A stretch of DNA of 54,283 bases from the IMG/VR virus record IMGVR_UViG_3300044568_001017, positions 1-54,283 of that record. One strand, written 5' to 3'. Positions 1-52,783 of the stretch are shown here, piece by piece. Each line of letters opens with the position of its first letter. The stretch's first letter is position 1. This DNA comes from a virus (lineage: Duplodnaviria > Caudoviricetes). The position numbers and the translations under genes are program-made. Below the pieces are notes generated by a model that was not told where the DNA came from, made no database searches, and worked only from the letters and a program-made list of their open reading frames with translations.

Positions 1-127
1 AAGCAATCCATACTGTAGCAGCGGTCACAGACAGGGTGCTTGGCACTAAACTAGAACACAAAGCAAGGGGATGCAGTTCATGCAATAGAAGAAGAAATGC
101 CTTGAATTCATTATCGTAAACGATAAA
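1..127. repeat. Exact 127-bp duplicate of 52657-52783 (circularity / assembly k-mer overlap)
   Basis: AAGCAATCC...TTATCGTAAACGATAAA is identical at both places and the sequences diverge right afterwards. 127 is a common assembler k. Implies a 52,656-bp circle. Confidence 0.95.
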
Positions 128-143
128 GTAAAATTCTAATATT

Positions 144-2573
144 ATGCTCTCAATAGGAAACGACAACTTCTCTTTAGCAACCCTAGACGAAAATGGCAAG
201 CCGCCAGCAACCCGCATCTCCAATGCCGATCACGCTTGGAACATAGCAAACAATTTAAGGCAAGCCAATGTAGGCAGGGAAAACAAACGCTTACGAATCT
301 ACAAAGCATATAAGATGTTCCCACCTACGGGGTACAGCAAGATTGCTGAAAAGAAACTACCTTGGCAATCGGACGTTAACTACGGACAACTAGGATTTAT
401 CGTAGATAACCAGAAGGCTAGTTACTATGATGTCATTACGGAGCGTCAGGCTTGTTGCACGATCAAGACTAAGTTCGGCAATGAAAAAGAACGACTTGTA
501 AACTCTGAGAATATCTCAACGGCATTTGACCAAGCAATCCGCGAATGGCCCGGCTACCTCTATAATACAGAACAAGACCTAGAGGAAATGCTTCTGTACG
601 GAAAAGGTATCGGAATGTGGGATAGTCCTATGGGATGGATGCCAGAACACGTTTTCCTTTCTGACCTTCTCTTCCCAGATGATATTCGTATCGACTTTTG
701 TAACCTTGAGGAATTTGTGCGCCGTGTCCGCCTAACTCCTTACGAGTTGTACAAAAAGATTGAGAACCGCAAAGCCGCTGAAGCAATGGGCTGGAACTTA
801 GATGCCGCTATTGACGCTATCCGCTTCCACCGATCATTCAGCAACCACAGGAAGACCCGTGAAGACTTCTTCCGCACAATCAGCGAAGCAGGATTCAACT
901 GGAGCCTTTCGGTCAACCAGAAGATTGATCTCTATGAGGTATACTGGAGAGAGTTTGATGGCACGATCTCGAAAGCAATCATCCTACAGGACTACCAACC
1001 TATCGCCCAGTACATCAACTCCAACTTTAAGGGTTCTGGTAAACTGAGTGAAGAGGATGTTCGTAGTGAGCATGGATTTATGATGTTGAAGATCGGTGCA
1101 TATAACTCATGGGATGAGATTCTTTATATGCTTACTGATTCGGTTGGTTCTGGTCTTTTCCAAGACATCAAGAGCCAAGCGGAATCGGCATTCGTTGCTT
1201 GCCGTCAGTATGACTTCACAATGAACGGATTGGTTGATGCAGTTCGACTTAACTCGATGCTGATGATTGAAGGTCAAGGGCCAGACTCTACCAAGATGTT
1301 AAAGCAGATGGAGTGGCTACCAATCTCGGTAATGCCAGATGGAGCGAAGTTCATCCAAAACCGCTTCCAACTCCCAGTAGCAGAGAGCATGGGATTCATG
1401 CAGTTCTTCATGGGTGATCTCTATCGCGGGATGGGGCAGTACCGCATCAACGCTCCTACGGGCGGGGGAAAACAACGAACCAAAGGCGAGGCAGAACTAG
1501 ATGCCGCTGAGTCCGCCAAACTATCTGGAACTCAGATTCGTCGATTCAACGAGTGCCAGACATTATTCTTCAAACAACTCTACAAGCGGTTTTTAAACTC
1601 TAAGTCCAGTGACGATGGGTATGAATACGTTAAGAAGTTCTATGAAATCCTAGAGGAAATGGGAACTCCTAAAGAGGCCGCGCAATTCAAGAACATTACT
1701 AGCATTCGTTCTAACCTTATCAATGGTGCGGGTAGTCCTAGCTTCAAGCTCATCACCGCTGAGAAGCTATTGCAGATCACAGCTATTACCCCAGCAAACG
1801 AAGGTCAAGAGAACGCTGTTAAGGACGCTATTGCCGCACTCTCTGGGCGTGACAACGTAGCTAGGTATCGCAACACAAAGCCAAGTAAGATTGACGATAC
1901 GATGCGAATCATTGGATTTGAGAACGCTGGTATGACGGATGTATTCGTTAACCCAGCTAACTTCCCAGTACTACCAACCGATCCACATATCGAACACGTC
2001 TCTGGTCACTTGCAGGATATGATGATGCAGATTCAAACGAGTATGCAGATGATCCAAGGCGGTCAACCAGACGTTAACGAACTGGCTAAAACTGTACGTT
2101 CTATCCAATTCAAAGGCGGTCACATCATGGCGCACGTTGGATTCATTCAGAAAGACCCATCCAAACAAGATTTCCTCAAGCAATTCATGCAAGGAATGCA
2201 ACAGGCTCAAGGTGCAGCAGACGAAATCGCTGGCGTATACCAAGAGATGGCACAAGCCCAACAAGGCAAACAATCTTCGGAAGAAGAACTCAAGCTCCAG
2301 TACCTCGCTGCCAAATCTGGTATCGAGATCGACACCAAGAAGAAACTTGCGGACATCTCCGTTGGCAAGGCTGCTATCAGTCACGCTCAACGCACAGAGC
2401 AACGCAAGGAGCAAGGCATTACACAACTCGCCCTACAGAAAGCCAAAGCCCGTCAAGAAATCCAAAAGGAAAAGGCAAAGATGGCAACTATGCAAGGCGA
2501 AAAGGTTGAGACTCCAGAAGTAACCGAAGAGGTTGAGATGGAAGTAGAAGAGCCACCACCATTTATTCAATAA
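144..2573 (+). CDS. Portal (head-tail connector) protein
   Basis: 809 aa, first large gene of the structural operon, next to terminase on the circle, followed by scaffold and capsid genes; Q-rich helical C-terminus as in P22-like portals. Confidence 0.8.
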   Translation: MLSIGNDNFSLATLDENGKPPATRISNADHAWNIANNLRQANVGRENKRLRIYKAYKMFPPTGYSKIAEKKLPWQSDVNYGQLGFIVDNQKASYYDVITERQACCTIKTKFGNEKERLVNSENISTAFDQAIREWPGYLYNTEQDLEEMLLYGKGIGMWDSPMGWMPEHVFLSDLLFPDDIRIDFCNLEEFVRRVRLTPYELYKKIENRKAAEAMGWNLDAAIDAIRFHRSFSNHRKTREDFFRTISEAGFNWSLSVNQKIDLYEVYWREFDGTISKAIILQDYQPIAQYINSNFKGSGKLSEEDVRSEHGFMMLKIGAYNSWDEILYMLTDSVGSGLFQDIKSQAESAFVACRQYDFTMNGLVDAVRLNSMLMIEGQGPDSTKMLKQMEWLPISVMPDGAKFIQNRFQLPVAESMGFMQFFMGDLYRGMGQYRINAPTGGGKQRTKGEAELDAAESAKLSGTQIRRFNECQTLFFKQLYKRFLNSKSSDDGYEYVKKFYEILEEMGTPKEAAQFKNITSIRSNLINGAGSPSFKLITAEKLLQITAITPANEGQENAVKDAIAALSGRDNVARYRNTKPSKIDDTMRIIGFENAGMTDVFVNPANFPVLPTDPHIEHVSGHLQDMMMQIQTSMQMIQGGQPDVNELAKTVRSIQFKGGHIMAHVGFIQKDPSKQDFLKQFMQGMQQAQGAADEIAGVYQEMAQAQQGKQSSEEELKLQYLAAKSGIEIDTKKKLADISVGKAAISHAQRTEQRKEQGITQLALQKAKARQEIQKEKAKMATMQGEKVETPEVTEEVEMEVEEPPPFIQ

Positions 2574-2574
2574 T

Positions 2575-3345
2575 ATGAGAGGAAACACTATAAGGGAAGA
2601 TGGAACTCAAAAAGGAAGTGGATTTCTTGGAGGAATAAAGAGACTTGATAACCCAGACGACATTTCAAGTGAAATATCAATTGGCGTTGATTGGGGTAGT
2701 GGTGAAAAGTTAATACCACAAATGGTTCCAACTCTTGATGATAATGAACTAAAGTATCTTCTTTCTACTCCAGAGGAAAAACTTCAAGCTGCAAATCCAG
2801 ATTTAAGTAAATCTATTACACGAAAAGCAGTTGAGTTTGCAAAACAAAGAGAATCACAAGGATTGCCATTTTTTGCTCAACCAGATGAGTCACCTAAAGA
2901 ACCCCGTATTATTTCTAATGAAAATAAAATCTTAGGCTATCCAATCGTTGAGCCAGATGAAGAACTTCTAAAGTGGTTTAAAGAAAACCCGCAAACATCA
3001 GGAATGCAATGGGGAGCAGGGAAGAATGATTCTCCAACAGATACTCCTAGATCAATTGTTCTTAATCCGTTTAGTAAAATAAGCAAAGAACAACAAATGG
3101 CAGTAGCAAAGAATGAAGCTATTAGACATTTCATTGATGAAAAGCAAATCATTCCAAAATTCAATCTAACTCCAGAACAAGAGAAAGCATTTGCTGGAAC
3201 TCAATATGGAAAGATTGCAGATAAGACTCCTTTAAAGCAGAGCGTCCTAGCCCGTATTCTTACGGGAGATCAATCTGCTGGAAAAATCACCCCAATGCAA
3301 CAGAAATGGGCGGATTGGGTTCAGTCACAACTACCACAACAATGA
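2575..3345 (+). CDS. Hypothetical phage protein
   Basis: 256-aa ORF tightly packed after the portal gene. Confidence 0.75.
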   Translation: MRGNTIREDGTQKGSGFLGGIKRLDNPDDISSEISIGVDWGSGEKLIPQMVPTLDDNELKYLLSTPEEKLQAANPDLSKSITRKAVEFAKQRESQGLPFFAQPDESPKEPRIISNENKILGYPIVEPDEELLKWFKENPQTSGMQWGAGKNDSPTDTPRSIVLNPFSKISKEQQMAVAKNEAIRHFIDEKQIIPKFNLTPEQEKAFAGTQYGKIADKTPLKQSVLARILTGDQSAGKITPMQQKWADWVQSQLPQQ

Positions 3346-3587
3346 CCACAGAAAAAGTAAAACTACTATGCGCTGCGATTACAGCACACGAAGATTGGAA
3401 CAAACTACAAGCATACCTACTGCTAAACGTAACCCCACCAGAAGGAGTAACCACGCTGATTCATGCAATCAAAACTATTGATGCTATTGGAACAGAGGAA
3501 CAAGGAGCATTCAAAAAAGCAAAGTCTTCTCCAAGAAATAAAGAGACAAAAGATAGCTCAGTTGACCCAGACCTCGACGAAAACTAA
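3342..3587 (+). CDS. Hypothetical protein
   Basis: ATGA overlap with the previous stop favours the start at 3342 (MTTEKV...). Confidence 0.7.
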   Translation: MTTEKVKLLCAAITAHEDWNKLQAYLLLNVTPPEGVTTLIHAIKTIDAIGTEEQGAFKKAKSSPRNKETKDSSVDPDLDEN

Positions 3588-3590
3588 TTT

Positions 3591-4862
3591 ATGGCAGACA
3601 CAACCGACACAGCAGAAGTAATCAAGGAGCTACAGGGGAAACCCCAAGTTCCTATTAAGGGAAACACATCTGACTTCCTAAAGAAGTTCAGTCAACAACA
3701 AAGCGACGAAGGTAAACCTAGCGCAACCAACATGGGCGACCCAATGCTAGGTCTTAGAAAGAATAATGAAGAAGAACCAGAACACACAGGGATTACTGAA
3801 TCCGAAATCACGTCCGACAGATCAGGCAAGAAAAAAGGATTCGTTGAACGGCAAATCGAAGAGAACCGAAAGCTCAAAGAAGAACTTGAAAAGTATAAGC
3901 GTGACGAAGTTCCAAAGTTTGAAACCAAAATCCAAGAGCTTGAGCAGCTTATCTCGGAAGCAAAATCCACAAAGGAAACAAACCACTACCAACAGCAACT
4001 CAACAAAGCAAACGAAGAAAAGCTCGACGTTGAACACGCCTTGTCAAAGCAAATCCAAGAACTCAGAGGTAAACTGGACTTTCACGACATTGCCAGTAAC
4101 CCCGACTTCCAAAAGAACTACATTGAACCTCTTAAAAGCACTTACGAATCTGCGAGACAATTGCTGGGGAATGATCCAACGCTTGTTTCAACCTTCTCCC
4201 GTGCTGTCAACGCAAACGCCGCTATTTACAATTCCCAAACAGAAGCGGACAGGCAAGCTGCGGAATCGGACAGGGATCAAGCGTTCGACGAAATCACAAA
4301 CTCACTCTCGCAATTCAAACAGTACCAATTTGCAGAGCAAGTCAACAACTTCATCAAAGCCGCAAAAAGCCACAATGCCGCCCTTGCCAACTTTGAAGAG
4401 ACTAAAAAGACCATAATCGAAACGTCTAAGCAACGTGAGCAAGAGGGGCGTAATAAGTTCCTTAATACATGGCGCGATAGTTATAAGACCACCCAGCAAG
4501 AGATAGACGGCGCAACTTCAGAATCAGAAGAAGTTTCTGAGTACATGAAGGAAAAGGGAATCAAGTATGACTTGAGCCGGGATGAAGCAATCGCGCTTTC
4601 GGCAACCCAGCAATCGAATGAGGAAGCATCCGTAGAGGATATGAACCGACTCATTCACCAAGGGCGCAACTATCAAAAGCTACAAGCCCAAATCAAAGCA
4701 TACAAAGAAATGGTAAAAGAGAAGAACGAGTATATCGAACAACTCAAGGGATCATCTCGCATTTCTGCTTCGCCAAAGACTTCTGATTCTCCATCACAAC
4801 GGATGAGTATGTCGGAGGGACTGGCGGCAAAGTTAGCACGATTCGGGCCGCGCACTGCATAG
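3591..4862 (+). CDS. Putative capsid scaffolding protein
   Basis: 423 aa, charged and coiled-coil rich, immediately upstream of the capsid gene. Confidence 0.65.
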   Translation: MADTTDTAEVIKELQGKPQVPIKGNTSDFLKKFSQQQSDEGKPSATNMGDPMLGLRKNNEEEPEHTGITESEITSDRSGKKKGFVERQIEENRKLKEELEKYKRDEVPKFETKIQELEQLISEAKSTKETNHYQQQLNKANEEKLDVEHALSKQIQELRGKLDFHDIASNPDFQKNYIEPLKSTYESARQLLGNDPTLVSTFSRAVNANAAIYNSQTEADRQAAESDRDQAFDEITNSLSQFKQYQFAEQVNNFIKAAKSHNAALANFEETKKTIIETSKQREQEGRNKFLNTWRDSYKTTQQEIDGATSESEEVSEYMKEKGIKYDLSRDEAIALSATQQSNEEASVEDMNRLIHQGRNYQKLQAQIKAYKEMVKEKNEYIEQLKGSSRISASPKTSDSPSQRMSMSEGLAAKLARFGPRTA

Positions 4863-4883
4863 CCCAATAATCCGTAATAGTGG

Positions 4884-4925
4884 AAAGGTGGAAGACTTAA
4901 AAAATCTTCCACCTTTTTATTTTTT
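4884..4925 (+). terminator. Intrinsic terminator
   Basis: AAAGGTGGAAGA / TCTTCCACCTTT 12-bp stem followed by a T-tract. Confidence 0.8.
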
Positions 4926-4928
4926 CGC

Positions 4929-4956
4929 TTGACAACAAATATAATGTTTCTATCTT
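4929..4956 (+). promoter_or_regulatory. Sigma70-like promoter for the capsid leader
   Basis: TTGACA-N16-TATCTT directly after the terminator. Confidence 0.6.
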
Positions 4957-4999
4957 TTAATCAAACGGGATATCCGACATTATCGTTTACGATAACATT

Positions 5000-5150
5000 A
5001 GGGATTCAGTCTCACCCAGACTGGCGAGTAACATCACTCGCATGAAAAGATGTTTCTGGACTGCTCTCGCAAGAGAGATTCGGGGTTGAATCCAGCCGAA
5101 GAAAACAAAGCACTCGCTTTGACATTCTTCGGACTTGTCATGGGTGCAAC
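5000..5150 (+). ncRNA. Structured, pseudoknotted 5' leader RNA of the major capsid gene
   Basis: Hairpins 5007-5023, 5024-5041, 5064-5077 (GCAA loop) and 5120-5140 (cUUCGg); loop complements AACATC/GATGTT and CACCCA/TGGGTG. Confidence 0.65.
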
Positions 5151-5183
5151 AACCAAACCAACTAAACCAAACAAATAAACAAA

Positions 5184-6593
5184 ATGTCAGATCAACTATA
5201 CTTCAATAGCTGTGCTGAAATTGATTCTTTCTTTCGTGAAGGCCGCGAATATTTCAACGACCTTTATGTGAAGAAACTTGTCACTAACAGTGCATACTTC
5301 ACACGTTTCGAGGAGCAAGCATGGCCTCTTAACCATACAACTGAACAGAAAGCATTCCGCTTCGGACGTGGGTTCCACGATCCTTGTACGCCTTTCCGTC
5401 AGATCACCGACACCTACTGCGAGACTGATTCTTGCGATAGCAAACCCGAAGTGATTCAACGCCCCGGCACTGAGTCCTATACTTTCGAGTTGCTCCGTAA
5501 GGAAATGACTACTGACTGGATTTGCGTTGAGAGCTTGCTCTATCGCTTGTTCCCTGCTGAAGAGATTCTTCAGTTTGAAGAGTCGAATGCTCGTATCACC
5601 AAGAATGTTCACGAAGAGTTCCTTCGTTCCAACTACATCGGTGGTTCTGGACACAAATGGATGGGTATCACTACTGATGACGGAACTTATTGCGGCCTCG
5701 TTGACGATGGCGCATGGTTCGTTCCAGAGCATACTCTCAACAACGAAGCTGGTTACGACCTCTGCGCCCTTCGCGTTAAGATCGCCGCCGCTGACCTTGG
5801 CAAGATTGCTTATCTCTCGCTTGATATGCTCGACGATGCACTCGTTGACCTCCAAGACGAAGATGACGCTTTCCGCCTTGATCTACAAGACGCAACGGGT
5901 CAACCTTTGCTCGATATCGTCATCCCTGACCCACAAGTTGGACGTGCGCTTTACTTCCAAGCGAAACGCAACAACGGTTACTGGGATGCAAACACTGATT
6001 TCGACGAGCGTCTTACCCGTCTGAAACTCGGCATCAATCGTATCATCGGCGACTACGCCTTCGGTTATGACATCAACTCCGCTCGCTTCAACGCTGACAC
6101 GGCATTCAATGCTAGTCTCCCTGCGTTCAGCGAAGGAAACCCAGCCTCATGGCCTCGCCTCGTTCGCGTTCCTCGCTACATCAAGACTGTTCTTGAGCAA
6201 GGTTGCGCTTACATTCCTAACCGCGCCTACCGCAATGCCGACTTCGGTATCTCTGTAGCTATGGTTAACAAAGCCATGTGCAAATGGACGATGCCTTCCT
6301 CGACTGGATACGGCCAAGCCCAACAAATGACCCAGAACTACGCTGGCGATTGGGATTGGAAGAATCCAGATTGGGAGTGCAACCGCTGGCGTAAAACGGG
6401 CTTCTATCAAGCCCAGTTCCGTCTTGCCGCACAGGTTAAAGACCCAACCATCATGCATAGCTTCTTGCATCGTATGCCCAAGAGCAAGAACCTCTACGGT
6501 TCCTGCTGCGAAGTGCAGACCTATATCGTTCCTGAGAACAATCAGGATTGCTATAGCTGCGCTGGTGTAGGTGACATTGTTGTGCCTTCCTAA
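5184..6593 (+). CDS. Major capsid protein (Cys-rich)
   Basis: 469 aa after the scaffold gene; high-expression-like codon usage (CGT, TTC, AAC); own promoter upstream and hairpin downstream. Confidence 0.8.
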   Translation: MSDQLYFNSCAEIDSFFREGREYFNDLYVKKLVTNSAYFTRFEEQAWPLNHTTEQKAFRFGRGFHDPCTPFRQITDTYCETDSCDSKPEVIQRPGTESYTFELLRKEMTTDWICVESLLYRLFPAEEILQFEESNARITKNVHEEFLRSNYIGGSGHKWMGITTDDGTYCGLVDDGAWFVPEHTLNNEAGYDLCALRVKIAAADLGKIAYLSLDMLDDALVDLQDEDDAFRLDLQDATGQPLLDIVIPDPQVGRALYFQAKRNNGYWDANTDFDERLTRLKLGINRIIGDYAFGYDINSARFNADTAFNASLPAFSEGNPASWPRLVRVPRYIKTVLEQGCAYIPNRAYRNADFGISVAMVNKAMCKWTMPSSTGYGQAQQMTQNYAGDWDWKNPDWECNRWRKTGFYQAQFRLAAQVKDPTIMHSFLHRMPKSKNLYGSCCEVQTYIVPENNQDCYSCAGVGDIVVPS

Positions 6594-6602
6594 GTTAAAC
6601 AA

Positions 6603-6629
6603 GGGGAGGGGCTATTAAAGCCTCTCCCC
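6603..6629 (+). terminator. Stem-loop after capsid gene (terminator or processing site)
   Basis: GGGGAGGGGCT ... AGCCTCTCCCC; T-tract is weak. Confidence 0.55.
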
Positions 6630-6653
6630 ATAACCTTAAATAAAATCAAATAT

Positions 6654-7268
6654 ATGTCTAATTCACGACCTCTCGCTTATGATCGGGTTAACCTTTTTGG
6701 CCCGATTGCCGTAAACTTGCTCGTTGCTGGTGACGCTGATCTTCTTGTTCTCAATGATGAGGATACTAAGTTCATCCCAACTAGCATCGTTCTCGAAACC
6801 GCTTATGCCCGTGGCACGACCGCAACTGATCCAGTTGTTGTTGCTGACATTGGTACAACTGGTACTGACCTCACATCCTCGCTGACCATCACTGATTCCC
6901 TTGATAACCAAGGAACATCAAACACATTGGCTTTGCTTGCTAACGCTCCTGTAGTTACTGGCTCCCGTAGCGTTCGTCTTCACAAGACAACTGTTGGTGC
7001 TGGTCAAGCTACCGCAACTCGTTCCCGTACTTCGGGCGTTGCTACAATCGTAACTGGTGCTGTTCATGGTTTTACCACGGGCGACACGATCACGATTGCC
7101 AGCATGACCGACACTACGTTCAATGACGTTCAAGCGCAAGTAACTGTTACTAGCACAACTGCATTCACCTACGAAAACGCTGGTGTGGATGTTGTTTCTG
7201 GTGCAGATACTGCCGGACGTGTTGGCGCACTTTATGTGAACGCCTACGTTGTTGGTATCTACTACTAA
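6654..7268 (+). CDS. Putative head decoration / virion protein
   Basis: Thr/Val-rich beta protein with a 'HGFTTGDTITI' module; capsid-like codon usage. Confidence 0.55.
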   Translation: MSNSRPLAYDRVNLFGPIAVNLLVAGDADLLVLNDEDTKFIPTSIVLETAYARGTTATDPVVVADIGTTGTDLTSSLTITDSLDNQGTSNTLALLANAPVVTGSRSVRLHKTTVGAGQATATRSRTSGVATIVTGAVHGFTTGDTITIASMTDTTFNDVQAQVTVTSTTAFTYENAGVDVVSGADTAGRVGALYVNAYVVGIYY

Positions 7269-7283
7269 CCCATTCCCCATTAT

Positions 7284-7325
7284 TGGGTGGGGAGGTCTTT
7301 AACCCTCCCTGCCCATAACCTTTTC
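7284..7325 (+). terminator. Intrinsic terminator
   Basis: TGGGTGGGGAGG ... CCTCCCTGCCCA followed by TAACCTTTTT. Confidence 0.6.
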
Positions 7326-7332
7326 TAAAACT

Positions 7333-7596
7333 ATGGCTTGCTTTACATCTTTACCTTACCACAATAAATTCTATCCACTTCTGATTACGGTTTCGGCGGC
7401 GGCTGGCATTACTCCAATTTCTTTCGGTTGCTTTGATGCAGCCAGCGATGCCTCTAGGCTTTATCAATTTTATCTGGCCTTTGCTACAATCGGTGGACTT
7501 ACCCCAGTAACTGAAAACTGCTTTGTACAAACAACGGAAGACCAACAACTCTTTGTTCTTAACGAAGCTGTTGCTGCCGCGCTTATTGTTACCTAA
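7333..7596 (+). CDS. Small virion-associated protein with three CF-initiated repeats
   Basis: 87 aa; ACFTSL / GCFDAA / NCFVQT repeat starts. Confidence 0.6.
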   Translation: MACFTSLPYHNKFYPLLITVSAAAGITPISFGCFDAASDASRLYQFYLAFATIGGLTPVTENCFVQTTEDQQLFVLNEAVAAALIVT

Positions 7597-7619
7597 TTAT
7601 CGTTAACGATAACAATCTT

Positions 7620-7895
7620 ATGGCTACTCCAGCACTATCACAACCCTGCTTTGTTGATTTAACTCCAGATCAGCAGAACTTTAATATCTACGAGTCTCTT
7701 AAACAGATCGCAGGATTTGATATTCCTGCCTACGATCAGATTGACATTGCTTATTACGGAACAACAAATAACATTGCAACAGTCCAGTATCTATTCGATG
7801 GAGTGCCAGTAGCTACATTAAACTTGTTCTACTCAGTTAATCCTCCAACAACGAATGATGCAAATCTAACGACTGTCACAGTAACATATCCATAA
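7620..7895 (+). CDS. Small virion-associated protein
   Basis: 91 aa; N-terminal [13 protein letters not shown] resembles the C-terminus of 7333..7596. Confidence 0.6.
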
Positions 7896-7896
7896 T

Positions 7897-10725
7897 ATGG
7901 CACTTAAATTTAATCCATTTACTGGAAAGCTAGATTTTGCTGCAAGCCAAGAACCTGCTAGTCAAGCAACATATTATAAAAGTGGCAACCAGAATCTAAG
8001 TGATCCAAATACCGATATTACGTTTGACCAATTGGCAACTTGGAGTAATGGGAATAACTATATCTCGCACACACCGGGTTCTAAAGATTTCACTGTAGTA
8101 AAGAGTGGTCTATATCAATTGGAATGGAATGCTTCTATTGCAGCAAATGGAGCAACATGGAATACCGCAAATAACAAAGTAATTTCTATTGATATTACCC
8201 GTTTTCCTACCGCAGAACAAATTGTAATAGGTCAAAGTGCTATTCAAGCGAACGGTCAAACTTATACTCAGAGTGTAAATTCAACTTTTAATCTTGTTGC
8301 CGGAGATATAATTAATCTTCGTGTTCAATGCACTTGGGCAACTGCACAACCATTTGTTCAAGGAGTTCAAAACACAATTGATCTTAATACTTGGTTTACT
8401 TGGAGGTTTGTATCGTTTGATGGAAATGGAGCGGTTGGAGCAGACGGGGCAACGGGAGCGACTGGCCCCAGTGGTGGCCCAACAGGAGCGACAGGTGTAA
8501 GTGGAGCCACAGGTTCCACGGGATCAACTGGTTTGACAGGCCCACAAGGTACAACAGGCGCAACAGGATTGATTGGATCGACAGGAGCCATTGGTAGTGC
8601 TGGCTCAACAGGAGCCACGGGTGCTACGGGCGTTGCAGGAACCAACGGAACAGATGGAGCCACAGGATCGACTGGAGTCACTGGCGTTATTGGATTAACT
8701 GGAACAACTGGCGCAACTGGAACCTCTGGAACAAACGGGACTACAGGAGCCACGGGCGTTTCTGGGAGTGATGGCGCAACAGGCGCAACAGGAAATGTTG
8801 GTGGTCAAGGTAGCACTGGAGCTACTGGCCCGGCGGCAAACACATCTACATTCGTGCAGAAAACTGGCGACACGATGACTGGGAAGTTGAATCTTCCAGC
8901 TTCAACCTCGTCTTCAGTTCCATTAAATTTAGGCAATGGAGTTTCACCAACAACAACAGTTGCAGGAGATGTATTTTCATCTGGGAATAATATATTCTTT
9001 AAAGGCACAACAGGCGGCCCATATATTTTTGCTTACAAAAATGACACGAATACATTTCTTGTCCCTCAAATAATTAACACTGTATCTCCGACTGGAGACT
9101 CTGCCCCAGCACTTCGCATAACGCAAGCTGGAGGAGGGGAGGCGTTGCGCGTAGAAGACCAGACTACCCCTGATTCTACAGCTTTTGTTGTATCAACTTC
9201 TGGAAGAGTCGGCGTTGGAGTAACGCCTGATGCAACAGTTTCGCTTTCAATAGATACTACTGGAATTAAGTTCGGTGACGGCACTATTCAAACAACCGCT
9301 ACAATCGCTGGTGCAACTGGTGCAACGGGAGCAGGAACGACAGGAGCAACTGGTGCGACTGGAACTTCTGGTGGACAAGGTAGTACGGGAGCCACTGGTT
9401 TGTCTGGCAATGACGGAGCCACGGGAGCGACAGGATTGACGGGCGCAACGGGAATTTCTGGAATTGATGGAGCAACTGGTTCCACGGGAGCAACAGGGAT
9501 AGCTGGACTTGATGGATCGACTGGTGCTACTGGGGTTTCTGGAGCAGATGGAGCGACAGGTGCGACAGGAACACAAGGTGATGTCGGGGCAACTGGAGCC
9601 ACGGGTGCTACTGGAATTGCTGGAGATATTGGTTCTACAGGAGCTACTGGTGTTGCCGGGTTAGACGGAGCAACAGGCGCGACTGGCGTTGCTGGCGATG
9701 TCGGAGCGACTGGCGCGACAGGCGTTGCAGGCGGTCAAGGCTCTACGGGTGCAACGGGCGTTACTGGAAATGACGGGGCGACTGGCTCCACAGGAGCTAC
9801 GGGCGTTATTGGCGATACAGGATCGACAGGAGCAACGGGTGTTGCTGGAGCAGATGGAGCTACAGGATCGACAGGAGCCACTGGCGCGACTGGCGCGAGC
9901 GGTGCAGATGGAACAGGGACTGCATATTACGGACAAGTCTCCCGAATCACAAACGGCACAATATCAATCGCTACTGCTGGGACATATCAATCAACCGGAT
10001 TAACCGCTACGCTCGATTCTGAAAACTTTGGAGTGAGCCTTGGGACAACAGATAGCTTTGCTGTAAAGAATACATCTGGTTCCGCGCAACTTTTCAAAAT
10101 CTACGGATCGGCAGATATTGATGCAGGAAACAATAGGGTTCTTGGAATTAAATTGGCACTTAATGGAACTCCGATTGACAATACAGAGTGCAATGCGTCA
10201 ACTGGACAAGGAACTACTTTTGCAAAACTTGTTACAAATTGGATGATCGAATTGCAACCGAATGACGAGGTTGCCTTGTTCGTTACAAACAAAACTACCG
10301 CTGGAAATGTTACCTTGTTGCGCGGCAGGTTGGTTGCATCAACTGTTGGACGGCAAGGAGAAGAGGGTGCTACGGGAGTTGCTGGGGCTACGGGTGATGT
10401 AGGGGCTACCGGATTAACTGGCGCAACTGGAGTGCAAGGCAATGTTGGTTCTACAGGTGCAACAGGTATCCAAGGTGATACAGGCTCGACTGGAGCCACG
10501 GGTGTTGCTGGTGTGGATGGGGCTACAGGGGCTACTGGTGCTACAGGAGTAGGAACACAAGGTTCGACGGGAGCAACTGGTTCTACCCCAGCCAATATTG
10601 TTCTTTCAGACACCACCGCCGCGCAAGGAGGGACTCAACTGCTTAACATGGTTCAAATAACTCAAGGGGCATACAACGCAATTGGAACTCCAACCTCAAA
10701 TACGCTTTACATCATCGTCGGATGA
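7897..10725 (+). CDS. Collagen-like (G-X-T) fibre protein with globular C1q/BclA-like domains
   Basis: Long GAT/GST triplet runs separated by beta-rich domains. Confidence 0.8.
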
Positions 10726-11585
10726 AATTGACTGATTCCAATGCGGGAGAAGTGGGAACTAGCAATGTAACTGCAATTGCGTCTGCAACTGCGGCGTTTC
10801 GCCAGATTTTGTGTTACGCCGCGACAACTATTTCGCAAGCGATTACTGGCGCAATAGGGCTAATTAAGAACGGGGTTGGTCAATTAACTCTATCTGGCAC
10901 TTGCAACTACACGGGGCAAACGCAAATCAACGCTGGAACGCTTGAAGTTACAGGCGCATCAACGCTCAACGGAGTTATTAGCGGATCAGGAACATTAAGA
11001 AAAACTGGAACGGCAGTTTTAACAATAGGTGGAAATAATACTTACGCTGGAGGAACATCGTTTGTTTCGGGAGGGTTAAGTGGACTGATATTGTACGCAT
11101 CAAGCAATGCTTTCGGAACGGGACTCTTTACTCTCTCTAACGCCGCAGGGCGAATTGATACAGGGAGTAGTGTGACCCTACCTAATAACTTTCAATTAAA
11201 CACTTCAATTCAGATTCGCACACTCGGAGCAAACACGATAACTATTACGGGTAATATTGCAGGGACTGGAAACATTGATAAAACAGGAAATGGAACCCTT
11301 ATTCTGTCTGGAACATTAACCTATACAGGGCAAACAATTATTACGGGATTGTTGCGAGCGTTCAAAACAACTGGAGCGTCAACCGCGACTGCAACATTTA
11401 ACTCGACTGGCTCATTCATTGCTGTTTCGTTCAATGTTTCACCTCCGTCTGGTGTTACAACATTTCGCTTCTTTCAAGGTTCAACATCAGGCACTTGGGG
11501 CGTAGGGACACTTACAGGAGTTCCTGCTGGAACAACGGCAACTTATAATTCAACAAACTCAACCCTTTCCGTAACAGTCCCATGA
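10722..11585 (+). CDS. Protein with autotransporter-associated beta-strand (PATR) repeats
   Basis: Three repeats of the type L-x-K-x-G-x-G-x-L-x-L-S-G-x-x-x-Y-T-G-x-T-x-I ([28 protein letters not shown]). Confidence 0.75.
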
Positions 11586-11794
11586 TCATTACTCCAAGTG
11601 CAAATGGCTGGTCATACGACGATTCTGTAGGAAAATGGAAATTGGCATATGAAGAGAAAACCATTATTTTCTACCAACAAACAGACCAATCAATTGCCAC
11701 GCCACAAACATTATTTGTAGGGACTCACGAAGAATGCGAAATACACATATCCCAACTGGGTTTACATTTCCCAGAAACCGAGGAAACAGAATGA
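11582..11794 (+). CDS. Hypothetical protein
   Basis: 70 aa, ATGA-coupled on both sides. Confidence 0.65.
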   Translation: MIITPSANGWSYDDSVGKWKLAYEEKTIIFYQQTDQSIATPQTLFVGTHEECEIHISQLGLHFPETEETE

Positions 11795-11967
11795 ACGACA
11801 ACGCCACCAATCACGGAATATTTGGAACGATCATTTCGACCACAGGATTTATAGTAAGTATGCTACCAGAAATAGAAGCGTCTATTAGAATGACGGGTGG
11901 GCTAATCAGCATCGTTGCTGGCATCCTAACGTGCATCTATATGTCAAAACAAATATTCAAAAAATGA
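11791..11967 (+). CDS. Small two-TM membrane protein (holin-like)
   Basis: MNDNATNHG... with two hydrophobic segments and a basic tail; lies in the lysis cassette. Confidence 0.55.
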   Translation: MNDNATNHGIFGTIISTTGFIVSMLPEIEASIRMTGGLISIVAGILTCIYMSKQIFKK

Positions 11968-12131
11968 AACCAAAACAAATAGTAGTAGCAATGATAGTAT
12001 TATCATTTGTCTTCTTGGGAATGGCATTCTTAACGGGATGCGCTGGGTTTAAAGCACCTAGTGTATGTTTTAAAACAGACTACGGCACACTATGTTATGA
12101 ACTCCCAGAAATTAAAGGACTTAAAAAATGA
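11964..12131 (+). CDS. Small lipoprotein (spanin-like)
   Basis: Signal peptide with lipobox LTG|C. Confidence 0.6.
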   Translation: MKPKQIVVAMIVLSFVFLGMAFLTGCAGFKAPSVCFKTDYGTLCYELPEIKGLKK

Positions 12132-12301: not shown

Positions 12302-12843
12302 TGGTTCCAAACTCCAGACCGCAACAAGCGAAAGAAAAGACTTTGGCTATGGTCATTAAGTCTGGAATCGTTGATCGTGTTGCTTTGGTTGGAATCAGAG
12401 GCTATTATCGTGATACTATGGGAGAGAAGGGAAAGAATGACCGGGGTATCTACGACGATGCGATTATACTTTTATCTCCTTCTGTTCATGCTACTTTCAA
12501 TGCGAATACTGATCCGTCAGTTCATAAGAAAGGTATTGCGGTTCTCAAGACGGGCATTCATAGGTTTCGCAAGGGCAATCATGGTCTTAGTAAACCCGGA
12601 GGCGGCTACCCTGCGCTTCGACCTTCTAACCCAAAAGAAGAACTGCCAGTCACGCGAGACGGTATTGGGGATGATATGGGAATCGCTATTAACGTCCATC
12701 GGGGAGGATACAACACCACATCGTCGCTGGGTTGCCAAACGATCTACCCGCCACAATGGGAAGGGTTCATCAATCTCGTCTACTCAGAAATGACTAGATA
12801 CAACCAAAAGACAATTCCCTATCTATTAGTGGAAAACATTTGA
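12301..12843 (+). CDS. Putative endolysin (Cys/His, L,D-transpeptidase-like)
   Basis: LVGIRG...YDD...TDP...INVH...SLGCQ motif pattern; adjacent to holin and lipoprotein genes. Confidence 0.6.
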   Translation: MVPNSRPQQAKEKTLAMVIKSGIVDRVALVGIRGYYRDTMGEKGKNDRGIYDDAIILLSPSVHATFNANTDPSVHKKGIAVLKTGIHRFRKGNHGLSKPGGGYPALRPSNPKEELPVTRDGIGDDMGIAINVHRGGYNTTSSLGCQTIYPPQWEGFINLVYSEMTRYNQKTIPYLLVENI

Positions 12844-12874
12844 CGGATTTTAAAATATCGTTAACGATAAAACT

Positions 12875-14098
<1,224 letters not shown>

Positions 14099-14112
14099 AA
14101 ACACTTGACTAA

Positions 14113-15078
<966 letters not shown>

Positions 15079-24589: not shown

Positions 24590-27500
24590 ATGGCTTTCGA
24601 CATAGACGTTTTTCTAAAAGAAAGTGGAAGTGGCGTTGTTGAAAATGAGAGTCAGACAGAGAAACCTCAATCAGTTCAACCCAAAGAAACTGCATTTGAT
24701 ATTGATACATTCCTAAAAGAGAATGTTTCTAATGTTCCAGTAGTATCAGAGCAAATCCAACCGCAAGAACCATCTGGTATCCTAAGACAAGCAGCAGACA
24801 TCCCACTTAAAGTAGCTCAAGGTGGAATCAGTTCAGTAAAAAGTTTCACTGATTTATTCGGCGCAGACAATGCAATGTCTAAAGAGTTAGCTGGATACGA
24901 GAAGTGGGTTGGTAGCCTAGTATCTGCTGAGTCCAAGAAGGACGATGAAGAGATCGCTAGGATTCTAAAGGATGCAGAAAACAAGGGAGTCTACGATAAG
25001 GTTGTAGCTGGTCTTCAAGCATTCTCTAAAGCTCCACTAGAAATGACAGCGCAAAGTGCTGGGTACATGATACCGCAACTTGCCGCTGGTGTGCTAGGAA
25101 AAGCCGCGCAGTTTACTAAAGCTGGTATCATTGGAACACAAGCTGCCATTGGATTTGCTCAAGGAGCAGGGCAAGCTAAAGGAGACATCTACGAATCGAC
25201 ATTAGATTATCTACGCAAACAAGGTGTGTCAGAAAATGTAGCGAACGATAAAGCAATCGAAGCCCAAGCAACGCTAGGAAAGAACCTAGATCAGATTTTA
25301 TTGAGTGCTATAGGGAATGCTTTGACATCTTCAACTGGTGCTGAAGCTATCGCAACCCGTATACTTATCAAGCAAGGCAAGGAAGCAACTGGTGGTGCTA
25401 TCAAAGGATTTTTAAAGGGAGTTGCCGCAGAATCTCCTTTGGAAGCAATTCAAAGCGCACAACAAGAAGTTGCTAAGAATGTTGCTATACAAAGAGAAGG
25501 TGGCGATGTGCCTACGTTCAAGGGTGCTATCGAGAGTGCTACTACTGGCGCGGTAGCTGGTGCATTTATCGGTGGGCCACTGGGTGCATTTGAAGCAATG
25601 AGTGCAGAGCAGAAGGCAGAGATAGACATTACCAAAGAAGCCAATCGTAAGGCGCGTGACCTAGAAGCACCCGATACAGCAACGCAAGCTATAGCAGCAG
25701 CGATTACTAACCTTGAGCGAGGCATTGATAATAAAAGAAAAGACCTAGATGTTTTAGAATCAACCTCACCAGAGGCATCGAAACTACGCTTAGACATTGC
25801 CGCTGACCAAAAGATTTTAGCTCAATCCAAAGAGCAAGCTAACAAATTAGGATTATCGGAAACGATAACAGAAGCAGAGAAGCAACAGATTGAGTTAGCT
25901 AAACAGATAGCTGCACCCGAAGTTGTCGCAGTCGCAGAAGCTGTAACACCCGCACCAGTAGAACAAGTAGTCACGCCACCAGTAGAGGTTGCACCAACCA
26001 TCGCAGAAACCGCGCCAGTTGAGCCAGTAGTAAGCCAAGAATTTAAAGATGAACTTGAAATGTCTGGAGTTGCTTACGATGGAGATACAAGGTATTCCGT
26101 CCAGCAATCTTCTAATGGCACATTCAGAGCGGAAAGAATTGTAAACGGAAAGAAGGAAGATATTCAAATTGGATTGCCAGACATTGAAACGGCACAAAAT
26201 GTAATCTTTAATTCAGTTGGAAAAGAAGTTCCTGCAATAACAGCAGAAACTCCTGCCATAACAATGCCAGAAATTCAACAGCAAGTTCCAAGTGGGATGT
26301 CGGTTGAGGAAGCCAAGGCATATCTTGAAGAAAGAAATAAATCTACAATCCTTGGATACGCGCCAGAAGATATTATGGCTATGCAACAAGGAAAGCGTGT
26401 TGCCAGAACTATTCCTCCCGCACCAGTCATCGAGCAAGCTGCACCAGCAGAAGCTCCCGCGCCAGAGGTTGCGCCTACTTTATGGGTTGCTCCAGAGCAA
26501 AAACTTACTTTGCAAGAAAACAGAGCATTGCAGATAGCCAACCTAAAAGGGACGGAAAAACGGACTGGTAATATTACTTTTGTTCCAGAAAAAATGATGA
26601 CTCCGCAAAGGTTGCAATCATTAAGAACGGAACAAGAATCATCTGGAACATTGAAGCAATTTCCAAGAGGGGGAAAGTTTATTGAGATAAAAATGATGGC
26701 AGATGTGACTGGTGATCCAAATGCAAAGGGATGGGCTATCATTGATCGCAGAACTGATCTTAATAGGAGAGAATGGATTGCTCAAATACCAAATCGAGAT
26801 GAAAGAATTTTGGCTGGAAGTATTGCAAATAATGAATCACAAAAGATTGTTTCTGCAATAAAAGAAGGAAGTATTACACAAGAAAGATCAAATCAACTTG
26901 TTGATGAGGCAGTAAACAATCAAATAATTTCATCGGATTTTGCTAATAATTTAAAGACTGAAATCAGTAAGTCCACCCGCGCAGTATCGGAAACGATAAC
27001 GGAGCCAGCAGAAGAACAAGGAGGTATCTTAAAAGAAACTGCTAAATTTGCTGACGAAGCTTTGCGCGAGCGAGATAAAGAAGTCGCAAGATACAAAAAG
27101 AAAGCTGATGCAGAACGTAAGGCGGGGCGTGAAGAGATGGCGCAACGATATGAAGGAATGATAGACGATTTAATGTCTGTCCCTTCTGAAGATTTTAAAA
27201 AAGATGTAATTGAAAACCCTGAATATTACATTGAATCAAATATTGATCCATTTCTGCGATTCAAAAACAAAGAAGTAAATAGAGCCACCCCATTAACACC
27301 ATCTAAACGCAAAAAAGAATCGGGCGGCGTTCTAATCCCCACCAAAGAAGACTTCATCCAAGCAGGGCAGAACATCTACGAGGCTGGCATGGAGTTTGGT
27401 GCTTGGGCTAAACAGATGATCCAGAGATTCGGTGATGCGGTGAGAGAGTTCCTTGGTGATGTATGGCAAGCGGTGAGTGGTGCGCCAGCGAAGTTAAATG

Positions 27501-30500
27501 AACTGATGGGTTACTTGCCGGGTAAAGGTGAGGCTGGATCGGTGAACCTTGGCAGCGGGAAACCAGCAACTGAATCAAAAAATGCTTTAGAACTAATTCG
27601 CGGAAACTATGGTGAGTTGAGCGATATGATCAACAAGATCATAGATAGTAATCAAAAAATCGCTGATGCTCTACAAAAGATACCCGTTGAACTAACAAGC
27701 AGGAATTCCTTTGATGGAGAAACTGTAAGAATTAGCAAGAGCTTCTCTGGGCTTAAATTAGTTGACGCAATCAACCACGAAATCACTCACTCATTTCTAG
27801 CGGTAGCATTAAGGGAGATTCCTTCATTCCGTGAAGCGATTAACTCAATCCGTCTTGATGCAATTGAGAGAGCAAAGTATTCAAATGACATAAGTTTTAG
27901 GGGCGCAGTTAGTCTAATAAAAGAAGCGCAAGGCTTATCTAGAGGGCTAATCTATACTAAAAGGGACACAGAAAATTTAAGCCAATACATGATCAGAAAT
28001 ACCAATGGCTTAATGTATTTGTGGAATTTGGATAAAACAAATCCTCCATTTACATACGAGATTTTTGAAACTGCTTATGCATTAGCATCCAACGATGAAT
28101 TCTTGGCTCACCTTATGAGTGACAAAAGATTCCGTGATGAGCTAAAAACATACAAGGTATTCACGCCAGACAATAGGAATCTCTTCCAGAAGTTTATAGA
28201 CTCTATCAAGGGCTTATTCCAAAAATTAACAAAGGTTGAGAAGACTGTTCTTGATAAAGCAATGGAGCAAGTTGAGCGAGTTGTTCAACTACCAGAGTAT
28301 AACCCTCGCCCAATTGAGGGACTTGCAGAAATGCTAGCTAAATATGAACAAGGTGATGCCCCAATAGAACCAGAAGCAGAGACAATCACCGAAGCAATGG
28401 GTCAAGGTCTGGATATTGGCAAAGAAGATAATATGCCAATCAACAATAAGATTGAGAGTCATATTAAGAACTTCGCTGTTGTCCGTGGGTTCTTTGAGTC
28501 TGCTAGTGATAGGTTGCGTAGAGCAGGGTTTAAAAAACTAGCTACAGCTATTGATGATTACTATGACCAAGCTCAACGCCGACTTGGATTCGCTAACAAG
28601 ATTCTTCTCCCAGCTTTTGATGAGTACGCAAAACAATCTAAAGCAAACAAGAAAAAGATTGATGAAGAAGTTAAGATGTTCTATGCCGCGCAAGAAAACA
28701 AGCGTGATACGGCTGAGTTCTTTGATGAGTTGAACCCAATCACTCAGAAGATTGTAACTGCTTGGCAGAAGTTTGGTGAAGAATCTGGTAAAGATAACCA
28801 AAGAATCGGAATCAAAGTTTTTGATCGTGGACTACAAAGGTTTCGACCAATCGGACGAGTAGATAAATTCTTCCCTCGTATTCTCAAACCAAAGTACAAA
28901 CAGGCATTGATGGAGCCAGACAAATATCAGAAAGAATACAACGAGATTGTAGAAGCCTTAATGAAGTCTGGAAGAATCGAGAAACCAGAAGACGCAGAGC
29001 GTTACATCTCTAACTACGAAGGAACTGGCACTCAGAAAGACTACTTCTCAGGTATTGAATCTGCCCGTGGTCAAGCACTCCCAGAGGAATTGTATGACTA
29101 TTCCATGCAAGTGATGACGGACTACGTTGCACGATGGGCGCAACACGCTAGTCGAATCGAACAATTCGGACAGAAACTTGGTGAGAACTCGATGACACTT
29201 TGGAATAGATCAAGAGCATCAACTAGAGATCGCAGGACAATCGACTACATTACCGCTGCTCAAGAACGAGTAGAAGGATACTTCCCAAATGATCCTTTCG
29301 TGAAAGGGATGGCGGCATTGAACATCTGGGCATCGGGATTGCAGTTAGGAAACCCAGCATCAGCTACGATGAACCTTGTTGGTGGCACTACGCTGAATGC
29401 CATGATCGGACAACCCGGCGCGGCTTCTAGCTACGTTGAGTCCCTTGTGGAGCTACGCAAACTTGGTAGCAATCTAAAAGACGCTAGAGAAAAAGGAATC
29501 ATCTCGCGTGATCTGATGAATATCGTAGGAGATCACCAAGAAGTTCTCGATCAAAATGGGATCGCTAAAGCTGGACAGAAGACTGCTGACTTCTTATTGA
29601 AGTGGTCAGGTTTCACTCCAGTAGAGCAGATGGTCAGAACACAAAGTCTGATTATCGGAAAATCATTCTTGAGAAAGACACTATCTAGCTACTCTCAAAA
29701 TCCAGATAGTTTATTCTCTAAACAAGCTAGTACATGGTTAAGCCGAAACAATTTTGATATTGATAAGCTGCTCGTTGAGCAAGGAAGCGGCCCAGAGACA
29801 GACAAGTTGATGCGCTACTTCGCTACTGCTTCCCAAGGTGGTTACACAATTTCACAGACTCCTATCTTCATTGATACACCGATTGGTAAATTCCTTTTCA
29901 AGTATCAGAAGTTCTCTACCCAAGTCATGCGTCAAGCATGGAAGAATACGTTTGAGCCAGCGTGGAAGGCCGTCACGTTTAAAGGTGAGACGATGCAACT
30001 GCCATCTGAAACAAGGCAGTTGCTCTATAGACTGAGACTAGCAGAGGCTAGGGAGATCGGAGACAACCGAAAGATTTCATTGGATGAGATACCACAGAAG
30101 GTATCTAAAGCAGAAGCAAAGGCATTAACTCTCATCCCTGTGATGATGTGGCTTGCCTCTGCGTATGTAGGTGGTGAAGCTATCCTGCGTTTGAGGGATG
30201 TTTTGTTTGGCGTAATGATGAAGGGGCCAGACTACGAAGACATCTTGAAAGCGTTAGAAGATGATGAAGACGATGATGAACTTTATCTAGGACTTCAACG
30301 CGCATGGTACAATCTGATTGGTATCGGTGCGCTAGGATTGATCGGCAACTACGGGCAGTTCTTCATGGACTGGCAGGATCGTGAGCGCGTCAAGAATCCG
30401 CTAGACCCACCAGCACTTAGCCTAGTCAAAGAAACTGCTACTCTGATTCAGAACGTAGCAGACCAAGGCACAATCACTAAAGGAGACATCAACAATTATG

Positions 30501-52397: not shown

Positions 52398-52775
52398 ATG
52401 AAACTCAAAAATAGAAACCTATCTCCAGTTGGCGGGTGGTACTACAAATACGAGATCAAGCGTGATAAACTCACCTTCCCAGCCGTAGTCTACGGAAGCA
52501 CATGGAGCAACTTGATTTCAAACATCCAAAAAGATTGCCGATCAAATGGAGTAGAAATTCCCAGTAACATTGAGCAACTTGTCGAAGATCAAATCTGCCA
52601 ACGCCAGCCAAGTGATCGTTGCTGGTATGCTGATGGGATTGGAGATAGAATCGCGCAAGCAATCCATACTGTAGCAGCGGTCACAGACAGGGTGCTTGGC
52701 ACTAAACTAGAACACAAAGCAAGGGGATGCAGTTCATGCAATAGAAGAAGAAATGCCTTGAATTCATTATCGTAA
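52398..52775 (+). CDS. Hypothetical Cys-containing protein
   Basis: 125 aa ending GCSSCNRRRNALN; first gene of the structural operon. Confidence 0.7.
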   Translation: MKLKNRNLSPVGGWYYKYEIKRDKLTFPAVVYGSTWSNLISNIQKDCRSNGVEIPSNIEQLVEDQICQRQPSDRCWYADGIGDRIAQAIHTVAAVTDRVLGTKLEHKARGCSSCNRRRNALNSLS

Positions 52776-52783
52776 ACGATAAA

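Follow-up and report, generated by a model that had tools for sequence, protein, structure and literature searches.

The major capsid gene of the tailed phage represented by IMG/VR record IMGVR_UViG_3300044568_001017 (Caudoviricetes) is preceded by a conserved, pseudoknotted RNA at positions 4964-5147 of the window, the term used here for the whole 54,283-nt stretch analysed; all coordinates are positions in this complete virus record of 54.3 kb. There is good support for a real RNA structure, for its location in cis and for its absence from Rfam. Comparison of homologous leaders showed a predicted architecture of three consecutive H-type pseudoknots, with a bistable 3′ module and a C/A-rich tract free of G downstream of them. 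An earlier reading of this DNA (the original prediction) had proposed a doubly pseudoknotted leader; a conserved pseudoknotted RNA was indeed found, but with three pseudoknots plus the bistable module. As to function, we see about an even chance that the leader is a cis-acting, riboswitch-like conformational switch or attenuator, in which a strand termed X′ would exchange one pairing partner for another.

Covariation and architecture of the leader RNA

Relatives of the capsid protein were collected from IMG/VR, the best 80 of 162 loci being kept, and a scan for the conserved-core pattern added at least 119 further stretches. Among the matches listed, and with edge and false hits removed, 188 leader instances gave 94 unique sequences. 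Trimming to 4958-5156 yielded 84 distinct leaders, which were aligned with MAFFT (alignment A1) and on the basis of a covariance model (A3). Left out were three loci with no or too little upstream DNA (L044, L079, L080), four matches to the core pattern that lay at contig edges and four that proved false (L087, L089, L109, L112); the regular-expression step missed 8 of the 94 leaders, and the register-free test used below skipped 1 of 94. The homologous leaders were ~70% identical in DNA, and the capsid proteins 93-100% identical.

The 201-nt stretch containing the leader folded better than its shuffles (z = -3.59), of which 1 in 200 was as good. In A1 the model was 88.3% paired, against 28-43% with slid partners, and 28 of 52 pairs changed on both sides; its covariation score was reached by 0 of 500 shuffles. 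A3 gave 88.0% against 30-43%, with 34 of 59 pairs changed on both sides across the 84 leaders and a covariation score of 0.277 against 0.109, again reached by 0 of 500 shuffles. Compensatory changes, which had been put forward as the check on the predicted fold, were thus present. RNAalifold independently recovered helices Pa, Pb, Pd and Pf and an Hb-like hairpin, and 47 alignment columns were invariant, many of them unpaired. The elements of the leader are as follows.

4966-4969, + strand: 5′ strand of pseudoknot PK1, pairing with 5015-5018 in the loop of hairpin Pa and stacked on Pa
4970-5006, + strand: domain P1, with pair A4970-U5006, helix 4974-4978/4998-5002 and an invariant G4976.A5000 mismatch
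4980-4995, + strand: palindrome TTATCG-N4-CGATAA at the tip of P1, inside the leader; one of 17 copies in the genome
5007-5023, + strand: hairpin Pa, 5007-5011/5019-5023, the 3′ part of whose loop (5015-5018) forms PK1
5024-5054, + strand: pseudoknot PK2, in which the loop (5030-5035) of hairpin Pb (5024-5029/5036-5041) pairs with 5049-5054 across the A-rich linker AUGAAAA
5056-5100, + strand: pseudoknot PK3, made of Pd (5056-5060/5091-5095) and Pe, in which X (5079-5083) pairs with X′ (5096-5100), with the conserved loop GGUUGAA at 5084-5090
5096-5132, + strand: alternative helix Ha, in which extended X′ (5096-5103) pairs with X″ (5125-5132)
5110-5147, + strand: alternative long hairpin, with Hb (5121-5124/5136-5139) and Hc (5110-5115 with 5142-5147), X″ lying in the apical loop

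An H-type pseudoknot calls for interleaved helices with compensatory changes in each, and this was found for PK1, PK2 and PK3. Across the 84 leaders the four PK1 pairs were A-U in 52, C-G in 7, U-A in 7, U-G in 1 and other in 17; G-C in 83; A-U in 46, G-C in 37 and other in 1; and G-C in 70. Divergent leaders carried other versions of PK1, for example UCAGA/UCUGA in L123. Within P1, pair 4974-5002 was C-G in 59 leaders and A-U in 25 without exception, and the inner pairs were invariant. The P1 cap, P1a (4980-4985/4990-4995), was the palindrome hairpin in 65 of the 84 leaders, with an invariant stem and a variable 4-nt centre. In the remaining 19 it was replaced by a GC-GYGA-GC tetraloop hairpin, and this exchange indicates that the tip of P1 acts as an RNA hairpin.

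PK3 was the most widely conserved core of the leader. In a local alignment of 46 distinct modules it was 93.1% paired against 28-46% with slid partners. Its Pe pairs were U-A in 23, C-G in 22 and G-C in 1; C-G and G-C in 22 each; A-U in 20, U-A in 18 and G-C in 7; and G-C in 46, four being without an unpaired cell and showing as many as four types of pair, and four of the five Pe pairs were compensatory. A U-A to C-G exchange specific to Pe was seen in L123.

All of the sequence elements listed in the original prediction are present where it had placed them, and the alignments separate those that are conserved from those that are not. Hairpin CAGTC/GACTG (Pa) was 99.5% paired with two-sided changes at all five pairs, in agreement with RNAalifold. 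Its loop had been paired with TGGGTG at 5141-5146; the two are complementary in the window, but this pairing was only 47% paired column by column, does not hold in clade g2 or the tetraloop group, and had a register-free score (4.29) indistinguishable from swapped tails (4.12 +/- 0.07, maximum 4.39). The conserved partner of the Pa loop is instead 4966-4969. Five of the six pairs proposed for GCGAGT/ACTCGC (5024-5041, Pb) held, with G-C in 71 and U-A in 12 leaders at one pair and C-G in 70 and G-C in 10 at another, but the sixth formed in only 26 of 84. Likewise, the three central pairs of the AACATC/GATGTT pseudoknot (PK2) covaried strongly (U-A 40 and C-G 29; C-G 42 and A-U 36; G-C 59, U-A 10 and G-U 5), while its outer pairs were not conserved. 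The enclosure of CTCTC-GCAA-GAGAG by CTGGA/TCCAG was upheld: the outer helix, Pd, was 100% paired, with U-A in 54 and C-G in 29 leaders at one pair, and the inner hairpin Pc (5064-5068/5073-5077) covaried and is optional, being missing in ~30 of 84. An alternative pairing of GGATTCA (5002-5008) with TGAATCC (5087-5093) was contradicted, since the 25 leaders with U5002 are compensated at 4974 and mismatched at 5093. A promoter and a palindrome had been placed upstream of the RNA; a promoter-like site does lie there (see below), but the palindrome is inside the RNA.

Transcription, distribution and novelty

The leader sits in a 321-nt gap between a 423-aa open reading frame (ORF), 3591-4862, and the 469-aa capsid ORF. 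Its immediate surroundings comprise four features.

4885-4925, + strand: intrinsic-terminator-like hairpin with an 11-bp stem, 9-nt loop and T-run, as read from the sequence
4929-4956, + strand: sigma-70-like promoter, TTGACA (4929-4934), 16 nt, TATCTT (4951-4956), matching 10 of 12 consensus positions
5147-5183, + strand: G-free, C/A-rich, unstructured spacer without a Shine-Dalgarno sequence, likewise read by eye
5184-6593, + strand: major capsid protein gene, 469 aa, HK97 fold (AlphaFold2 and Foldseek)

The hairpin at 4885-4925 closes the scaffold-like gene 3591-4862 and was missed by the terminator scan, its loop being longer than 8 nt. The site at 4929-4956 was the top promoter-like site across 1-12000 of the window, and TTGACA was kept in homologues whose fetched upstream DNA extends that far; transcription would start at about 4962-4965. 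The composition of the spacer was the same in all aligned homologues, and it is presumably the ribosome loading region. Modelling of the capsid ORF from 43 homologues (predicted local distance difference test score 74, predicted template modelling score 0.71) and a Foldseek search, with best matches to the capsids of phages Moo19 and N4 and cyanophage A4 (E ~3e-10, probability 1.0), identify the product on structural prediction as an HK97-fold major capsid protein, in line with the original assignment of the downstream gene.

Leader sequence was contained in 21 RNA runs. Four lake metatranscriptome runs, from four studies, were mapped as contigs, which give presence and continuity and cannot prove RNA ends. 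Their RNA contigs start at 4974, 4972, 4975 and 4975 and extend across the leader into the capsid ORF, with 4975-6790 covered by one unbroken contig in two instances, and in all four runs nothing was found over 4888-4971. Leader-plus-ORF contigs reached depths of 22-70, whereas pieces of the upstream gene stood at 3-7; contig depth within the capsid ORF cannot be taken as evidence of attenuation. The contig starts, the step in depth and the gap at 4888-4971 together fit an active promoter at 4929-4956 and an effective upstream terminator. Positions 4964-5147 are thus the 5′ leader of the capsid mRNA.

A covariance model built on A1 (R1) matched all 84 source sequences at 113-210 bits and reached at least 100 bits in 58 of the 80 metagenome loci. 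In the window it found one full copy (4958-5158, 196.7 bits); the other 35 matches listed scored at most 14.9 bits and were mostly the palindrome alone, three being other partial matches. None of the 4227 models of Rfam 15 reached its gathering threshold in the whole window or in 10 related loci, and a permissive scan of 4850-5250 (E <= 10) returned only chance hits of at most 22 bits, with no riboswitch, ribozyme or packaging RNA (pRNA) model among them. The original reading, a conserved cis-located RNA in the capsid-gene leader belonging to no recognised family, is therefore supported by covariation and by the Rfam scans alike. Neither the leader DNA nor the capsid protein had a match among INPHARED phage records, and ARAGORN detected no transfer RNA or transfer-messenger RNA. 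Queries of the viral contigs with a distant capsid relative (P0014) gave no match, and a query with alignment A5 retrieved only the clade of the window itself.

Among 185,579 species genomes, capsid relatives gave two hits, both on contigs of metagenome-assembled genomes (MAGs) with a mis-binned look. The RNA pattern gave 30 stretches, of which the covariance model accepted one as a true leader, on one of these two MAG contigs, which looks mis-binned and is of phage origin, and the RNA thus appears to be confined to phage genomes. No description of the motif was found in full-text literature searches. A 2023 survey of IMG/VR intergenic regions (PMC10690425) catalogued 8,495 unnamed structured-RNA candidates of 29-151 nt, some of them upstream of capsid genes, and may already contain the motif without a name.

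Weak or partial resemblance to the leader was noted in L341 (2083-2291, 22.6 bits), L372 (3055-3178, 24.6 bits) and L334, and Ha- and Pf-like elements were seen by eye upstream of more distant capsid genes in L341 and L345. Further diverged members of the family probably exist. Phages differ in which 5′ half of the leader (PK1/PK2) is joined to which 3′ half (PK3 and switch), as in L010, L163 and L178, pointing to recombination inside the leader. Such recombination makes the retained long-range complementarity more telling, but complicates the phylogenetic statistics.

The bistable 3′ module and its possible role

Downstream of PK3, strand X′ has a second potential partner. Helix Ha encloses the invariant element AAGCAYUCGCUU (5108-5119), which can itself form hairpin Pf (5107-5111/5116-5120). 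All 94 leaders had Ha as an uninterrupted helix of 5-9 bp, which scored 6.89 against 5.27 +/- 0.15 (maximum 5.69) for swapped partners, and the Ha pairs outside X′ covaried (5101-5127, G-C in 52 and A-U in 32; 5102-5126, A-U in 42 and G-C in 40). In the competing long hairpin, the 3′ tails were always complementary to 5108-5119, in shifting registers; they scored 5.13, and shuffled tails 3.76 +/- 0.08. Because of these shifts, A3 understates, column by column, the pairing of Hc (48%) and of Ha positions 1-5, and both were scored with register-free scripts. A stem at 5120-5140 capped by cUUCGg had been proposed here; its helix 5121-5124/5136-5139 (Hb) did covary, with G-C in 40 and C-G in 23 leaders, but UUCGG belongs to the 3′ strand of Ha.

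The independent covariation of X′ with X and with X″ shows that X′ has two partners under selection. The same arrangement was seen in a distant clade, whose capsid is ~45% identical to the query used to fetch it (P0025) and which was compared without L326 and L346 (no upstream DNA) and L351 (identical to L350). Of 13 leaders there, 12 retain X-GGUUG-CCAG-X′, which occurs in three covarying versions, X/X′/X″ being GCGAU/AUCGC/GCGAU or GCAAU/GUUGC/GCAAU, for example, and in 11 of these 12 a matching X″ lies in the loop of a hairpin composed of an A-tract, GG..CC and a U-tract. In clade g2 the X″-bearing hairpin scores as terminator-like. Nearest-neighbour energies of the two states in eight representatives differed by -0.4 to -5.2 kcal/mol, making them near-isoenergetic in a comparison that omits pseudoknot loop penalties.

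In the switch that we propose, state 1 would have X′ (5096-5100) closing PK3, with the 3′ module folded as Hb/Hc and X″ (5125-5132) exposed in its loop. In state 2, X′ would pair with X″ as Ha, element 5108-5119 would fold on itself and PK3 would open. A factor that binds the PK3-containing fold, be it a metabolite, an ion or a protein, would set the balance between the states, and this balance would set the amount of full-length or usable capsid mRNA. In two related clades the read-out looks, from the hairpin sequences, like intrinsic termination. We prefer the switch because it alone explains the exclusive covarying helices, their recurrence in the distant clade, the near-equal energies and the invariant unpaired positions.

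Several observations weigh against it. The leaders are related and recombining, and shuffle statistics therefore overstate their independence. The energy values are weakened by the omission noted above. The mutual exclusivity of Ha and Hb/Hc is argued from loop lengths, which leave 3 nt to bridge 8 bp, and not from a three-dimensional model. The terminator scan flagged nothing on the + strand of the window's own leader, the start-codon region is sequestered in neither state, and neither a ligand nor a read-out was identified in its clade; moreover, L281 and L323 keep PK3 without a copy of X″, and thus not every member of the wider family has the switch. Finally, the contig starts at 4972-4975 lie 8-11 nt past the predicted start and 3′ of the PK1 strand, and PK1 could not form if they were true starts. 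RNA libraries of this kind usually lose ~10 nt at 5′ ends. We attribute the gap to this usual shortfall, although the transcripts may instead have been trimmed back to the base of P1 or cleaved at that point. A leader peptide was considered and rejected, as AUG 5042 is present in 48 and AUG 5050 in 10 of the 84 leaders and the peptides (8 to at least 30 aa) are unrelated in sequence.

A static role for the leader is a tentative alternative, to which we would give some weight while judging it unlikely. The pseudoknot stack would shield the most abundant late mRNA from 5′-end-dependent RNases, the G-free tract would be kept open for Shine-Dalgarno-independent initiation, and the alternative pairings would be non-regulatory folding intermediates. 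The structure begins a few nucleotides from the predicted start site, the RNA contigs of the four runs have their 5′ ends at the base of P1 as if P1 blocked trimming, and leader-plus-ORF contigs reach 5-20 times the depth of the upstream gene. The start-codon region is unstructured in every homologue, the genome makes no evident use of Shine-Dalgarno sequences, and the two leaders that have PK3 without X″ are as expected of a static element. However, a simple hairpin would be enough for protection, and a static role leaves unexplained both the 47 invariant columns and the independent covariation of two exclusive helices with its three-way recurrence in the distant clade. If it is nevertheless correct, the leader is a compact natural tandem-pseudoknot module coupling mRNA protection with Shine-Dalgarno-independent translation, of use in RNA structural biology and in expression design for hosts without Shine-Dalgarno use.

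The same contig ends could instead mark a processing element or self-cleaving ribozyme cut between the PK1 strand and P1 (~4972-4975), by the RNA or by a host enzyme, including a variant in which an RNase P-like host enzyme recognises the P1/P1a minihelix. All four ends fall at the base of P1, yet the covarying 4966-4969 must be transcribed, and A4970, A4972 and C4975-G4976-A4977 are invariant or nearly so. Large ribozymes such as glmS have a similar size and multi-pseudoknot architecture. We nevertheless consider either version very unlikely: contig ends cannot prove RNA ends, a shortfall of ~10 nt is ordinary for such libraries, and the ends scatter over 4 nt. Nor did the Rfam scans described above return any ribozyme family, the hammerhead, twister, twister-sister, pistol, hatchet, HDV-like (hepatitis delta virus-like) and glmS models all being absent at E <= 10 from 4850-5250. 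Processive antitermination of the put type, whereby the nascent leader would bind the polymerase and confer terminator resistance across the late operon (5184 to ~31000), is to be doubted at least as strongly. The leader does adjoin a strong promoter at the head of ~26 kb of + strand structural genes and is a cis-located, single-copy element in each genome. Known put RNAs are two simple stem-loops of ~70 nt, very different from the fold described here; furthermore, no + strand terminator-like site was flagged in 5184-7210, and antitermination does not predict the alternative pairings. A pRNA-like structural RNA, which the original prediction had also entertained, or else a packaging RNA or some different free small RNA, would share with the leader only a size of ~180 nt and loop-mediated pseudoknots. 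We find this barely credible, since the RNA contigs run continuously from the leader into the capsid ORF with no terminator between them in the window, all pseudoknot partners are intramolecular and covarying, the genome holds a single copy, and no Rfam model, that of phi29 pRNA included, was matched.

The conformational switch can also be set beside known systems. Pseudoknot riboswitches whose platforms are terminators or antiterminators (SAM-II/V, preQ1, fluoride, ZTP, for example) share with the leader the cis position in a 5′ leader, a conserved pseudoknotted core with invariant unpaired nucleotides, a core-closing strand with an exclusive second partner downstream, and peripheral helices or platforms that vary by lineage; ligand-binding RNAs likewise hold many invariant unpaired positions. 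The general hallmarks of a riboswitch can be recognised here: a conserved structured domain supported by covariation, a location in the 5′ untranslated region (UTR) with co-transcription of the gene, and mutually exclusive pairing that would link a sensing domain to a platform, the exclusivity of Ha and Hb/Hc being deduced. On the other hand, the leader has no Rfam 15 match, comprises three tandem pseudoknots over ~180 nt, has no known ligand, precedes a phage capsid gene and not a metabolic or transport gene, and in its own clade lacks a terminator or start-site sequestration. We would put forward only as a doubtful proposal a new phage-borne riboswitch class, whose PK3-centred aptamer would respond to a metabolite or ion of the host and control completion of the capsid mRNA through X/X′/X″. 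The logic of X′ pairing with X or X″ is that of the middle segment in classical attenuators (1:2/2:3/3:4), as is the U-tract hairpin carrying X″ in g2 and the distant clade, but the leader has no conserved leader peptide and its 1:2 segment is embedded in a conserved pseudoknot.

The T4 gene 32 mRNA likewise has a structured 5′ leader on a highly expressed phage gene; its operator, however, is a single small pseudoknot bound by the gene's own protein. The tobacco mosaic virus upstream pseudoknot domain and the flavivirus exonuclease-resistant RNAs are consecutive, coaxially stackable pseudoknots with roles in RNA stability or translation, but they lie in the 3′ UTRs of eukaryotic RNA viruses and the leader has no sequence or model similarity to them, hits resembling the former domain at 4850-5250 being chance matches on the opposite strand only. 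With phi29 pRNA and small ribozymes the leader shares phage origin and loop-mediated tertiary pairing; unlike them, it is continuous with an mRNA, matches no such model and offers cleavage only as a candidate activity.

Structured leaders are rare on phage late structural genes, and the phage riboswitches known so far belong mostly to auxiliary metabolic genes. This RNA of 180 nt and three pseudoknots is transcribed in lakes and was kept while capsid proteins diverged to ~45% identity. If the switch is true, capsid production in abundant uncultured freshwater phages would be gated by an RNA sensor, adding a regulatory layer to the lytic programme and a new orphan riboswitch-like class. Were it also a genuine riboswitch class, it would be widespread in freshwater phages and the first such class to serve a virion structural gene.

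Genome setting and the palindrome

The gene order around the leader is a portal-like 809-aa ORF, the 423-aa coiled-coil-rich ORF and the 469-aa capsid ORF. We infer the portal and scaffold labels of the first two; neither they nor the capsid ORF matched Pfam or PHROGs. A Shine-Dalgarno-like match, even of 4 nt, preceded only 7 of 38 ORFs in the window, and the pre-start regions are A/T-rich. Judged on these regions, the host probably initiates translation without Shine-Dalgarno pairing, and a 'Bacteroidota-like' host label rests only on this scarcity. N4-like phages package a giant virion RNA polymerase. As the capsid fold is nearest to N4-like phages, the 2144-aa ORF at 24590-31024, which has no Pfam match, was raised as a possible enzyme of this kind. 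Three ORFs (7897-10725, 12875-14098 and 14143-15078) are rich in Gly-X-Y collagen-like repeats, have degenerate 9-nt-phased DNA repeats in common and probably encode fibre proteins.

The palindrome at the tip of P1, TTATCG-N4-CGATAA, has 17 matches in the window against 0.16 expected, at 111, 4980, 7597, 12855, 14120, 20900, 25853, 26984, 31135, 33449, 37052, 38795, 41584, 47609, 49273, 50608 and 52767. The copies at 111, 7597, 12855, 14120, 20900 and 52767 lie at most 17 nt upstream of, or overlap, + strand starts, and start-proximal copies often directly follow the preceding stop codon. Possible roles of the palindrome are those of an operator, a translational signal acting in the RNA, or a site of recombination. 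Two of the copies fall in a 54-nt unit repeated at 74% identity (12833-12886 and 14098-14151) before two collagen-like genes, with the layout TTGAC, ~10 nt, palindrome, 4-7 nt, ATG, a repetition that points to short cassettes serving as promoters or operators.

The start of the record recurs at its end: 1-127 is 100% identical to 52657-52783 over 127 nt, and 153-452 resembles 53474-53773, in the portal-like gene, at 79% identity over 300 nt. An extra 224-aa ORF (52784-53458) is inserted directly after the palindrome at the record end. The terminal repeat has the look of an assembly that wrapped around and joined two strain variants, distinguished by a cassette inserted at the palindrome.

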